In this document: one piece after another, positions 2,470-64,000 of the stretch | Numbering within the stretch: the first letter of the stretch is position 1 | How the letters are laid out: each line of letters begins with the position of its first letter | Assembly: GCF_026210795.1 (NCBI RefSeq) | Contig: NC_089432.1 | Coordinates: 1-64,000, forward strand | Length of the DNA: 64,000 nt | From: Rhizophagus irregularis | Taxonomy: Eukaryota | Reading direction: 5' to 3' | The notes under the pieces: model-generated | Database searches by the model: none | The model's input: only the letters and a program-made list of their open reading frames with translations | Told to the model about the DNA's origin: nothing | Translations under genes and position numbers: made by a program

Positions 2470-4095
2470 ACCCGTAAGTATTTTATTTATGTTTAACATT
2501 TTTAGTAAAAGTACTAAATAATCTTTTCATTTGCTTGTTTAAAGGGCTTTTTTTAAAAAAATTTTTTTTTATTAGGGAAACATCACTAACGTTTCCTTTA
2601 TTTTTTTTATTGTAGGACTTTCTTGGAAAAACGAAATAAAAGGGTAAGTTTTAAGCATTCCGCTTCAAAACTTTTAAAAAAATTTTATTATTTTTTTTTA
2701 TAAGGAAACATTTTTAACGTTTCCTTTATATCTTTTTTTGGGGGCTTTTTATTTGGGAAATGGAATGCAAAAGATAAGTTTCAAAGCTCCGTTTTAAAAC
2801 TTTTAAAAATTTTTTTCGTTTTTTTTATAAGGAAACGTATCTAACATTTCCTTTATTTTTTTTTTGTAGGTCTTTTGGCTCATTTTCGTTCCAGAATATT
2901 GAAAACTAGAATTTCGAGTCGTACGCTATACTTTGAAACTTTTAAAAAAATAATTTTTTATTTTTCTTTTTGAAACTAACGTTCTATAATTTTTTTTGTA
3001 GGACTCGGTGTATTTGATTTGGAAAACGAAATGGTACGCCTCGAAACTTTTTTAAAAAAAATTTTTCTAAGTTTTTTTAAAACGTTACTAATGTTTCCTA
3101 TAATTTTTTTTTGTAGGTGTTCGGCTTCAGATCTAGATATGATAGTGAATAACTGGATATGGTAAGTTTCGAAGAGTTTCACTTTCTCTTCGAAACTTAA
3201 AATCAATTTTTTATTAAGAGACGTTTGCTAACGTCTCCTTCGTCTCATTTATCATTTTTGTAGGATTGGAGTATTGGCTTTGAGAATTAGAATGTGCACC
3301 ATTCGACAATAAACAATCCAAATCATGTATAACACTTTTATATGAAACAGAATTTTGAAGGTTAACTTCAAAATTTTTTAATTGTTTGTTTTTAACGAAA
3401 CATGACTAACGTTTCATTTTTTTTTCTTCTTTAGGTTCATGGATTCCTAGACGTTTTCTGAACGGGATTTTGAAGGTAAAACTTTGAAATCTTTGATTTT
3501 TTTAAAGAAATGATACTAACGTTTCTTTCTCATTCGTTTTGGTAGAATGGTGAGTTTCGCAATAGACATTGCGAAACTTGTATTTTTTTTTAAAAAACGT
3601 TTACTAACGATTCTTTTCTTATTTTTGTAGGTCTACAGATTTTTGGGTAGACAAAATGGTAAGTTTAACCGTTGTGAAACTCTATTTTATAATTTTTTTT
3701 TAAGAAACGTTGACTAACGTTTCTTTTCTTATTTTGTAGGTTTACGGGTTTTCAGATAAAATGGTGAGTTTCGCAATATCCGTTGCAAAACTTTGATTTT
3801 ATAATTTTTTTTTAAGAAACGTTGACTAACGTTTCTTTTCTTATTTTGTAGCCTACGGATTTTATGTGAGTTTTCAGAACATCCAGTTGCGAAACTTTGA
3901 TTTTATAATTTTTTTTTAAGAAACGTTGACTAACATTTCTTTTCTTATTTTGTAGGTCTACGGGTTTTCAGGTAAAATGGTGAGTTTCACAACATCCGTT
4001 ACGAAACTTTGATTTTTTTTTATTGTTAAAGAAATGTGAGTACATGACTAACATTTTTTTTTCATTTTTTAGGTCTACAGGTTTTCGGTAAGTAG
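2470..4095 (+). repeat. Tandem array of intron/micro-exon cassettes with hairpin-embedded splice signals (array A)
   Basis: About 13-15 units of roughly 100-130 bp: GTAAGT/GTGAGT, T-tract, GAAACGTT-NNCT-AACGTTTC, pyrimidine tract, TAG|G, then a ~20-60 nt exon. Confidence 0.85.
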
Positions 4096-4105
4096 AATGG
4101 TTACA

Positions 4106-4492
4106 TAAAGATGTGATATGTAATTATTTTTAGAAGGTTGTAAGGTTGCAACTATTACAACATACATACAACACTTTTGTTGTAATTGCAATACAATATT
4201 ATAATTATTATATAGTATTATAATACTTTTAGTATTGTAATTATTATATAGTGTTGTAATTATTTTTAATTATACAAATATGTATTATAATATATTAATA
4301 ATTATTTCTTTTTATGATGATATTTATTCTATAAAAACTTATTTTTGTAATTTTTATTTTTCAAAAAGAAAATTTTTGAATAATCATAAGTGTTGTAATA
4401 TTACAACACTTTAACTTTAAAAGTAGTAATAGATTGCAACCCTTACTATTACAACATAAGGTAGTAATTATCAATTACATACTACATCTTTA
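4106..4492. mobile_element. hAT-type MITE
   Basis: TIR TAAAGATGTGATATGTAATT / AATTACATACTACATCTTTA; exact 8-bp TSD TGGTTACA (4098-4105 and 4493-4500). Confidence 0.85.
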
Positions 4493-4865
4493 TGGTTACA
4501 TTCCCACCTTGTTATTGTTGTATCACCAGGGGCGCTATGTCAACGGAAATTTAGTATGTTGATCGCTTAAAAATCATGGAAATCCAATTATAACAAGAGG
4601 GATTAATTTTTAAACATTTGACAATTTACATTACTGAGAAATATCAATTTGTAGTGTAGTAGGACCCCGAACATTATATATAAAACTCAGATCTAAACTC
4701 AGATTTTTTAATATAACTTTATACACATAGTTTTATTAAAAGCTTTATACAAAATCGGCATATAAGTTTAAATTTTACTATAAAATATACAATTTCAGAT
4801 CTGAGTTTATGTAAAATCAAATTTTTATTTAATATTTAATAATTACATCAGTTTTGTGTAATTAT

Positions 4866-62105: not shown

Positions 62106-62349
62106 TAAGGTTGCTTGCCAAAACCTAGGGGTTTAGGCAAGATAGCGTTTCGCTGAAAAGTGAAATTTTACTGAAACTATATTAAAGTTATATTAAAAAA
62201 CTGGTGAAACTTTGAAGAAAGACAAAACTGCCGAAACTTATTATAAATGCCAAAACTGCTGAAACTCTGCCGAAACTATAATAAATCTATAGTAAAATTT
62301 TAACGAAACTAATCGTAGAATTTTGAAGAGGTTTAGACAAGCAACCTTA
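62106..62349. mobile_element. hAT-like MITE, same TIR family as 28242-36454
   Basis: TAAGGTTGCTTGCCAAAAC / GTTTAGACAAGCAACCTTA; TSD GGCATATC/GGCATGTC. Confidence 0.8.
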
Positions 62350-62884
62350 GGCATGTCATATATTATAGATCTATATTATGAAAACAAAAAAATAAAAAAG
62401 TGTTTAATGGTGATAAGATTGATGAAATTTATGGTAATATTTATTTTAAATACAGAAAAAGCTCTGAATTTTATTGTTCTTATACTTTAAAAGAAATTAA
62501 GAAAAGTGTTGCATATCATTTAATTAATAGTGCACACTGGTCGAAATAAAAACTTTCGGTCATGTGACAAATCGGCTGATCTATCACACATTTCGACCAA
62601 ATTTCGGAAATTATTAAAAATCGGCCAAATTTCAACATATATGATTTATGGTCGATTTATTGAATTATTTAATCAAACGTTACGCATTACGCGTTACACG
62701 TATTAAAAGTTTAAAAAAGGATCATCCTTTTTTAAATTTTTTTTAATTTTTTTCTTCCCTTCCCTTCCCTTTCCTTTCCTTTGTTCCCCTTCCCTGTTTC
62801 CCTTTCCCTTCCTTCGTTCTCCTTTCCCTTTCTTCCCTTTTTCTTCCTTCCCCTTTTCCCCCTTTCACTTTTTTTACTTTTTTT

Positions 62885-64000
62885 TTATAAGTTCGGCTTT
62901 CGGGTGGGCTTCTGAAGTACAGAAACTCCAAAGATTCATAAGTATGAATACTTTGGAGTTTATTTTATTTTTTTTTAATACAAATGGTTACTAACTGTTC
63001 TTTTTTCTTTCTTTTTTTTTAGGTTCGGCCGTTCGGGTGGGCTTCCGAAGTACAGAAACTCCAAAGATTCGTAAGTACGAATACTTTGAAGTTTATTTTA
63101 TTTTTTTTTAATATGAACGGTTACTAACCGTTCTTTTTTCTTTCTTTTTTTAGGTTCGGCCGTTCGGGTGACTTCCGAAGAATGGAAAAAACTAAGTTTC
63201 GTAAGTTCAGAACTTGGTTTATTTTTTTTAATATTATGAACAGTTATTAACCGTTCTTTTTCTTTTATTTTTTATAGGTTCAGCGTCTCGGGTAGGGCTT
63301 CCGAGTTCCGAAGAACGAAAAAAACCAAGATTCGTAAGTATATACGAATCTTGGTTTTAATTTTTTTGTTTTTTTTAATTTTATTAATGAACGGTTACTA
63401 ATAACCATTCCTTTCTTTATTTTTTAGGTTCGGGTAGGCTTCTAGAGAATGAAAACCCAAAGATAAAGATTTGTAAGTACGAATCTTTTCTTTATAATTT
63501 TTTTTTTGTTTTTTCTTTATTACGGACAGTTACTAATAACCATTTTTTTCTTTATTTTTTAGGTTCGGGTGGGCTTCTGAAAAATGAAAACCAAAGGTAA
63601 AGATTCGTAAGTACGAATCTTTTCTTTATAATTTTTTTTTTTGTTTTTTCTTTATTATGAACGGTTACTAATAACCATTTTTTTCTTTATTTTTTAGGTT
63701 CGGGGTGGGTTCCTTAAAAAAGAAAAACAAAAACCCAAAGGTAAAGATTCGTAAGTACGAATCTTTACTTTTTTTTCTTTTTTTCTGTTTTTTTCTTTAT
63801 TATGAACGGTTACTAATAACCGTTCTTTTCTTTATTTTTTTAGGTGCGGTGGGCTTCCAAAAAACGAAAACCCAAAGATAAAGATTCGTAAGTACAAATC
63901 TTTACTTTATAATTTTTTTTTGTTTTTTCTTTATTACGAACGGTTACTAATAACTATTTTTTCATTTTTTTAGATTTGGGTGAGCTTCAAAAGAACGAAA
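62885..64000 (+). repeat. Intron/micro-exon array H (at least 8 units, runs off the window)
   Basis: Units of ~130-150 bp: TAG|GTTCGG..AAGATTC|GTAAGTACGAATCTT .. GAACGGTTACTAACCGTTC .. TTTAG. Confidence 0.9.

Follow-up and report, generated by a model that had tools for sequence, protein, structure and literature searches.

Transposon-borne tandem arrays of intron-like units with structured branch sites in Rhizophagus irregularis

DNA transposons of several superfamilies carry tandem arrays whose units are intron-like, are joined by non-coding exons and appear to be under long-term constraint, as sequence comparison supports. The arrays were analyzed in positions 1-64,000 of NC_089432.1 (hereafter the window), a stretch near a telomere and rich in transposons. 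Established observations are the anatomy of the arrays, their spread over superfamilies, donor enrichment, stem covariation, the absence of a reading frame and a contrast in CpG content. A degenerate acceptor-plus-hairpin pattern gave 13 matches in the window and 0 in 100 shuffles. The acceptor and branch-hairpin motif recurs at 120 metagenome loci, with at least two units in 64 of them, and the motif-bearing soil contigs likely come from relatives of this arbuscular mycorrhizal fungus. The leading reading, held tentatively and at somewhat below even confidence, is that the arrays are non-coding transcription units, dense in introns, which act in cis to maintain activity at the ends of transposons. 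The features of the window are as follows.

2474-4094, + strand: array A, ~13 intron/micro-exon units with divergent exons, a branch hairpin in most units and an intronic stem near the donor
16749-18763: non-autonomous hAT-like element with TIR TAGTGCTCC, 8-bp TSD ATGATAAC and GATCAGAT-type subterminal repeats; sole cargo, array B
16934-18481, - strand: array B, 11.5 x 134-nt units with a branch hairpin and an exon-intron stem holding the GT in its loop
23640-24250, + strand: array C, T-rich introns and micro-exons; branch hairpin missing
25755-26030, - strand: array D, 3 degenerate units with the branch-stem sequence as a relic
28242-36454: outer non-autonomous element with TIR TAAGGTT.. and a degenerate 8-bp TSD; cargo, array E/E'
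28985-29322, + strand: left part of array E, a copy with decayed donors
about 29327-35635 (6.3 kb), + strand: transposase-bearing insertion with AATT flanks; splits array E and lies outside the array system
33414-34776: non-autonomous element with TIR CAGTC.CCCTCTC and TA TSD; sole cargo, array F
33600-34245, + strand: array F, five introns with the donor GTAAGT; the branch hairpin is strong in four
35640-36120, + strand: array E, right part (E'), with identity to the left half
37920-38470, - strand: array G, degenerate units, some with donor-side stem sequence; no branch hairpin
62533-64000, + strand: left end of the H element, with left TIR CACACTGGTCGAAA, a CT-rich stretch and then array H
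from 62885 past the window end (64000), + strand: array H, with a hairpin at the branch and the donor surrounded by a long stem

Units lie head-to-tail with tandem periodicity inside larger TIR/TSD elements, and no termini of this kind were seen around single units on reading the sequence. The original prediction counted eight arrays; the number falls to seven because E and E' are a single array split by an insertion, with halves 89% identical over 102 nt. The left part has ATAG where the homologous E' donor has GTAGGT, and an element related to the outer one carries its array unbroken (L063). The inserted element is presumably a candidate Sola1-like transposon, from its TSD and motif; as it splits E, the array was ruled out as a 5' leader of its transposase. 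The B element has the marks of a non-autonomous hAT, namely a short TIR starting TAG, an 8-bp TSD, subterminal repeats and relatives with hAT transposase, and B-type arrays adjoin hAT transposases in L005, L007, L036, L053 and L071. The F element, which we take to be Tc1/pogo-like by its terminal features, has a relative that includes the array (L045), and arrays related to A occur in L012, L044 and L037. Three arrays had been described as sole cargo of their elements; this holds for B (TAGTGCTCC ends, 8-bp TSD) and F (CAGTC ends, TA TSD). For H only the left TIR falls inside the window, with a matching terminus in L029.

As in U2-type spliceosomal introns, the GT donor, the branch motif, the pyrimidine tract and the YAG of a unit share a strand and are spaced as in an intron, with a median of 81 nt; predicted GT/AG pairs include 3659-3739, 33773-33843 and 63607-63697. 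The predicted order GT[A/G]AGT...(A)CTAAC/T-tract/YAG was recovered in place and strand, but not with a canonical donor in every unit; several A, D and G units have poor donor scores. With donors left out of the search pattern, GT[A/G]AG lies 28-80 nt upstream of the branch in 55 of 139 matches, compared with 14.8 in shuffled sequence and 4 antisense. A strong donor accompanies 74 of 112 units, themselves defined without donors, against a null of 14.5, and none of 43 chance hits from prokaryote and virus contigs has a donor upstream. The array introns carry consensus signals, whereas the coding introns of neighboring transposases are AT-rich, often have weaker donors and lack the hairpin. Primary sequences had been thought to differ between arrays, yet the branch/acceptor halves match at 78-93% over 30-76 nt. 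Helitron 3' ends were considered and rejected: a Helitron terminates in CTRR, while the ends here read [G/T/A]TAG and then G, and have a donor upstream. A reading as heat-shock elements does not fit the spacing as judged by eye.

The exons keep no frame, as anticipated: their lengths modulo 3 are distributed 25/20/29 among 74, and the longest Met-started frame in five joined exon sets is 32-62 aa, with joins that are approximate and skip units. Donors are kept despite exon divergence to 52-58% mean identity (L045, L011, L037, L012). A search of 163 loci and the window found no intron-less junction copy, which says nothing about RNA. Among the tandem copies of the window, splice-site bases were not kept significantly better than other bases, as had been expected (10/206 versus 147/1924 other non-CpG bases, p=0.16). 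This near-neutral decay, together with degenerate units in E, D, G and L029, the last with long acceptor-only runs that have lost branch and donor, is what would be expected of neutral relics, minisatellites of a once-captured intron without function in any present copy. Such a history is very improbable, given that donors and pairing are kept over diverged exons and families, beside unbroken 640-aa hAT frames (L036, L071).

Folding of 36- and 48-nt segments, rather than entire introns, revealed separate local stems at the branch and at the donor. A branch hairpin counted as strong at a predicted -5 kcal/mol or better. The proposed enrichment over coding introns was found, with strong hairpins in 28 of 56 array introns and in none of 26 control introns, which were picked by eye, with homology confirmed for only 2 of the 26; an automatic homology-backed search gave 2 introns out of 433 candidates. 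Strong hairpins occur in 7 of 12 scored introns of A and 10 of 11 in B, and in none of five in C or five in G. The hairpins quoted for A, B, E, F and H are present, but D has none that is strong (0 of 2 scored). The branch A, originally placed in the loop, is predicted to be paired in 23 of 28 strong hairpins as the 3' base of the loop-closing pair. As to the donor stems claimed for A, B, G and H, those of B (median z -3.15) and H (-4.2) stand, that of A is weaker (-0.9) and none was seen in G, nor in F or C. Donor-stem geometry is of three types, differing among A, B and H. The hairpin spans ~25 nt, is confined to the branch site rather than spanning the intron, and the window has no Rfam match at gathering score. 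Covariation, the check proposed at the outset, was found at three outer stem pairs (p<=0.002 over 74 distinct cores, kinship ignored). Cells of the comparison changed on both sides of the stem number 26 versus 10.6 in shuffles, with slid controls lower (kinship again ignored), and chance hits in prokaryote and virus contigs show no stem covariation.

Each hairpin arm contains an AACGTT palindrome, and letters of the outer stem change freely without loss of pairing. Inverted repeats can be perfected by template switching, which counts for a DNA-level reading: the palindrome, amplified in tandem, would be a site of binding or extrusion that serves an anti-silencing factor or a host factor, with incidental splice signals and compensation through template switching. 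The subterminal, CpG-rich position of the arrays is compatible with this, and VANDAL/VANC provides a precedent (PMC5735166). We consider it improbable, as donor, branch and acceptor are strand-specific at intron-like spacing, free outer letters with kept pairing are unlike a site read by its sequence, and the intron layout persists in hairpin-less arrays. In addition, VANC motifs vary among related elements, but the array motif is common to superfamilies.

The arrays of the relatives adjoin hAT, CACTA-type, DUF7869 and Tet/JBP genes and mostly read inward from element ends; identified multi-unit loci adjoin transposase or transposon-type genes. The placement varies. In L005, L007 and L077, arrays flank the transposase on both sides and read inward, so that 3' antisense arrays are also present; the 5' array of L005 is mostly hairpin-less. 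The array is 5' and sense in L009, L036, L071 and L055, and 3' and antisense in L053, where a donor lies ~40 nt from the stop codon; L018 and L065 have 3' antisense or divergent arrays. L010 and L084 are deletion derivatives that keep the array and, of the transposase, only the last ~48 codons. The arrays of L010, L063 and L067 were rejected as antisense to adjacent CACTA, MULE and NUDIX genes, as they lie in separate small elements. Sense arrays at the 5' side of hATs, and L055 in particular, which looks like a plain multi-intron 5' leader into a Tet/JBP gene, would suit ordinary untranslated leaders. One ancestral intron would have been tandem-duplicated and shuffled between elements under selection for spliceability only, the hairpin aiding branch choice in T-rich RNA; the common branch half and the tandem periodicity agree with this. 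It is nevertheless unlikely, leaving unexplained the 3' antisense or divergent arrays of L018 and L065, signals stronger than in coding introns and the three donor-stem geometries.

In 8 of 9 loci the array exceeds the neighboring coding region in CpG observed/expected, or in 7 of 8 when L063 is set aside because its array lies in a separate small element; the exception is L065. The excess is partly the stems themselves, and coding constraint affects the comparison. Among the tandem copies of the window, CpG sites decay fast (51/276 changed, p=1e-7), which indicates that the arrays failed to keep these copies unmethylated. As reported in PMC8647823, R. irregularis transposons carry CG methylation that is lower in expressed copies, and methylation is high at the small-RNA loci of transposons that are not expressed. 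The latter speaks against the CpG-rich arrays being a self-limiting source of small RNAs, a possibility raised at the outset, in which stem-occluded introns stall spliceosomes, 3' antisense arrays overlap transposase transcripts and RdRP/Argonaute silencing caps copy number. This would accord with the predicted pairing of the branch A, the donor stems of A, B and H and the 3' antisense arrays in L005, L007, L053 and L077. Moreover, of the small-RNA loci of R. irregularis, 41% lack annotation and are found near transposons (10.1101/2021.03.30.436303), and SCANR is a precedent (review PMC6232588). However, the splice signals are near-consensus rather than suboptimal, and self-harm hardly explains why arrays are retained and amplified in non-autonomous copies. 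This doubtful alternative is ranked second because CpG-rich arrays beside CpG-depleted transposase coding regions better fit ends that are mostly unmethylated and active.

On the reading of the arrays as cis-acting transcription units, arrays near transposon ends are likely transcribed inward, and their RNA is likely spliced, either as a non-coding leader or as an RNA of its own. With spliceosomes densely loaded on this RNA, the CpG-rich ends of the element would stay active and resemble a gene, which would shield the element from silencing in cis. In the predicted fold, the loop holds (A)CU from the branch motif and the stem closes on the branch A; rather than blocking U2-stage assembly, such a stem is predicted to tune or lengthen it. 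New units would arise by tandem duplication, with the array retained in internal-deletion derivatives. Transcription and splicing are inferred from the sequence, as are the effect against silencing and what the stem does. In human cells, introns guard against silencing even when unspliced (PMC8770142), a support weakened by its animal origin. Two observations point away from an anti-silencing effect: a branch sequence buried in a stem can inhibit splicing (PMC2275289), and stalled spliceosomes recruit RNAi in Cryptococcus (review PMC6232588). The hairpin-less arrays C, D and G and most of the L005 5' array, the acceptor-only units of L029 and the near-neutral splice sites in window copies also count against it. 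A wider proposal, possible but less probable, is that a swappable 'splice-signal cassette' is common to Glomeromycotan DNA transposons from many superfamilies. The cassette, non-coding, rich in introns and with a structured branch site, would hold or load spliceosomes, mimic a host gene and provide protein-free counter-silencing. If spliced and functional, the arrays would represent a strategy by which transposons rely on RNA processing signals in place of an encoded protein, common to superfamilies in one fungal lineage. They would make it possible to test whether fungi take introns as a mark of self that averts silencing and whether the outcome depends on splicing being slow or efficient, provide a naturally occurring set of branch-site hairpins that differ by compensatory changes, and account for part of the unclassified repeats, 24% of the R. 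irregularis genome.

The motif was not found in 9 supplementary files of PMC6399891 or in 8 from PMC8647823 (file 1 left out), whose tables may hold few sequences. The literature searched, which covered few subscription papers, yielded no description of such transposon-borne intron arrays. Set against known classes, what stands apart is the architecture; the function proposed for it is a prediction. Schistosome micro-exon genes have runs of very short coding exons with lengths in multiples of three; the array exons are likewise very short, but their lengths are not multiples of three and they lack coding character. In snoRNA host genes (GAS5) and mirtrons, many non-coding exons surround a conserved part within introns, whereas the arrays have no Rfam match and a ~25-nt hairpin local to the branch site. 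Introner elements are repeated, structured, related introns tied to transposition that are mobile in their own right and insert into host genes; array units instead are tandem cargo of larger elements, with no TIR or TSD seen around single units. To our knowledge, no transposon exploits intron-mediated HUSH protection through arrays. HUSH similarly treats introns as marking a transcript as self (PMC8770142), but it is a human system and no evidence of a fungal counterpart complex emerged here. Like the arrays, VANDAL/VANC of Arabidopsis involves tandem non-coding repeats in DNA transposons with a proposed cis role against methylation, and its targets are short DNA motifs, which are not the same in related elements and are recognized by a protein that the element encodes (PMC5735166). 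The array unit, in contrast, is a whole intron plus exon common to superfamilies rather than a family-specific motif, with no known reader protein. SCANR of Cryptococcus likewise ties transposon introns to fungal silencing; its introns belong to ordinary transposon transcripts and are processed poorly (review PMC6232588), whereas the arrays are dedicated structures with consensus signals and structured branch sites.

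Intron-like units, typically running from a donor through a branch motif and T-tract to a YAG acceptor and a short non-coding exon, are present at every place predicted in the window. The pattern of an acceptor with a branch hairpin, a stem at the intron branch site, is matched 13 times in the window and in none of 100 shuffles. The array architecture is real and apparently undescribed, with good comparative support from sequence. The Dallaire preprint text (10.1101/2021.03.30.436303) contains no occurrence of 'intron' or 'splic'; the array elements could be present, unnamed, in published repeat libraries, small-RNA tables or bioRxiv files.

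Branch folding used 36 nt around the branch, with -5 kcal/mol or better taken as strong; unscored are one unit each of B and D, which lack an AG, and one acceptor each of C and G. The expected enrichment was found, with strong hairpins in 28/56 array introns of the window and in 0/26 coding introns, these controls being chosen by eye from the window and two metagenome-contig loci, L007 and L077 (array-median z against control z, p=0.02).

Strong branch hairpins per window array
A: 7/12
B: 10/11
C: 0/5
D: 0/2
E (left part 28985-29322, right part, E', 35640-36120): 4/7
F: 4/6
G: 0/5
H: 3/8

The original reading of branch hairpins in six arrays holds for A, B, E, F and H; D has none that is strong. 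The branch A, expected in the loop, is instead predicted to be paired in 23 of the 28 strong hairpins, closing a loop that contains (A)CU; a three-base insertion in later H units shifts it into the loop. A separate stem at or next to the donor is intronic in A, straddles exon and intron in B, where GT falls in the loop, and surrounds the junction in H, and the fourth array proposed to carry one, G, resembles F, C and 12 control donors in folding no donor stem above shuffles.

The branch stem covaries, as anticipated. At three outer pairs, Watson-Crick combinations are more frequent than in column shuffles (p<=0.002, 74 distinct cores); the excess is weaker at the two inner pairs and absent at the outermost one. 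Both-sided changes, counted in 20/22 distinct cores of the more frequent loop length, fill 26 cells against 10.6 in shuffles, and slid partners score lower. Kinship of the cores is ignored, so none of these figures are probabilities. That the stem is a motif acting at the DNA level is quite improbable.

A scan of metagenome contigs with the acceptor and hairpin pattern, in which the donor was not included and six stem pairs were allowed to mismatch, gave at least 120 loci (~290 estimated); among the loci listed, at least two hairpin units occur in 64/120 and at least three in 40/120. After 12/151 matches were dropped for too short a flank, 55/139 matches listed had GT[A/G]AG 28-80 nt before the branch, compared with 14.8 in shuffles and 4 for the antisense motif, and the distance peaks at 40-69 nt. 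In 26 selected arrays, whose units were defined without reference to the donor, a strong donor is present in 74/112 units (null, 14.5); the scores of 0 in some arrays reflect donor variants, for instance GTAATT or GTAGGT. Exons of these arrays are 14-94 nt long (median 37) and, as proposed, keep no frame: lengths modulo 3 are distributed 25/20/29, and a long frame is absent. Aligned along its whole length, the hAT transposase of L036 shares only ~42% identity with named Rhizophagus proteins; relatives yet to be sequenced therefore likely carry the arrays too. Chance, or DNA of other organisms, accounts for some of the single-unit loci. Prokaryote genomes gave 34 single matches and viral contigs nine, and neither donor nor covariation was found in these 43 chance matches. 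A single-unit match recurring in 39-50% GC contigs (L008, L013, L020, L023, L034, L056, L064, L076, L085, L090, L091, L094, L113), with no GT[A/G]AG donor upstream in those 13 loci, is apparently another organism's repeat. In L029, of a family common to L015 and L073, long runs of T-tract/TAG and exon-like units lacking donor or branch (2190-3700 and 750-1770) flank four complete hairpin introns.

The window is a DNA-transposon nest near a telomere. It opens with ~850 nt of TAACCC repeats, after which GC is ~20-38% with a single 1-kb bin at 42%. Pfam domains comprise DDE_3, DDE_Tnp_4 with a Myb/SANT partner, F-box-like and Crinkler; named matches of its frames are Glomeromycotina throughout, and frame 31321-31839 has 98% identity to a Rhizophagus irregularis protein.

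Other features of the window
1-914: telomeric TAACCC tract, then a 22-nt variant repeat, marking a chromosome end
4660-10224: TIR element, 8-bp TSD; broken minus-strand transposase-like gene without Pfam match
24393-24928: palindromic element whose 259-nt arms are 91% complementary, with shorter relatives (59718-59926; near 11069)
41412-43714 (-): frame with a Crinkler N-terminal domain, then one of 512 aa that has a P-loop-like motif and lacks Pfam matches
47968-49470 (+): uninterrupted 500-aa DDE_3 (Tc1/IS630-type) frame inside another, intron-containing transposon gene
50946-51696: tandem repeat of 71 nt in 10.6 copies; an inverted repeat, TTTCGCAC/GTGCGAAA, lies inside it, and some copies have GTGAGT, though no acceptor; possibly a relative having just the donor stem, or else an array of binding sites
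56797-60090: element with 168-nt inverted ends and convergent Myb/SANT and DDE_Tnp_4 genes, Harbinger/PIF-type by its terminal features; its terminus resembles that of H
60339-61270 (+): broken gene, presumably Crypton-like from motifs resembling tyrosine recombinase; tested frame without Pfam match

The Sola1 and pogo labels of window elements are likewise putative, given by terminal features. Three arrays were proposed as sole cargo of TIR/TSD elements, and this is borne out by B, F and, with an insertion discounted, E/E'. The two parts of E form a single array, since they are 89% identical over 102 nt and the sequence separating them is flanked by AATT and its inverted ends are degenerate. 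Only the left element end of H is visible in the window, and L044 suggests that A is part of a long element resuming at ~15170-16750 past several insertions. Among relatives, the carriers belong to several superfamilies.

Position of arrays relative to element genes
L005, L007 (hAT): both sides of the transposase, reading inward
L077 (DUF7869): both sides, reading inward; element ends not located
L009, L036, L071 (hAT): 5', in sense
L055, 930-3292 (Tet/JBP dioxygenase gene): 5', in sense; upstream leader with five to six hairpin introns
L053: 3', antisense
L018 and L065, related to each other: array and Transposase_21 gene divergent

Arrays lying 5' in sense could be plain expanded leaders, an unlikely account of the whole; in L036 and L071 the array may be a separate RNA rather than an mRNA leader, since a TATA-like box, read by eye, lies between it and the start codon. 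Coding introns of array-bearing elements have AT-rich sequence and, in many cases, weaker donors. The array survives in L010 and L084, two internal-deletion derivatives of the L036 family. Tet/JBP, a DNA-modifying enzyme adjoining an array, is of interest to any reading that involves methylation.

CpG observed/expected is 0.70-2.24 in arrays versus 0.17-0.80 in neighbouring coding regions, and is higher in the array at 8/9 loci. Within tandem copies of A, B, F and H, 51/276 CpG bases are off consensus (p=1e-7); splice-site bases are off consensus at 10/206 versus 147/1924 other non-CpG bases (p=0.16), so that no significant splice-site conservation is found within these copies. Donors in the left part of E are mutated. 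The window copies look methylated and decaying, and these observations count against current function in this window. Constraint is seen between families, not within window copies, and that the arrays as a whole are relics is highly improbable.

Active copies are probably transcribed and spliced. The function we infer for the arrays is that of anti-silencing cargo helping the element in cis. The benefit would fall in cis because non-autonomous elements retain the array; spliceosome recruitment would be the selected trait because consensus signals are stronger than in coding introns; and element ends would be mostly unmethylated because arrays are CpG-rich. From these three steps the anti-silencing role is tentatively placed first, at somewhat below an even chance. 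Its main tension lies in the branch stem, since splicing can be inhibited when the branch sequence is covered by a stem (PMC2275289), and inhibited splicing triggers RNAi in Cryptococcus (PMC6232588). Self-limitation of the elements through small RNA, to which the same route might lead, is improbable as an explanation of the arrays. Under any of these readings selection for the branch stem would be unusual, because yeast introns are expected to lack structure close to splice sites (PMC12350175).
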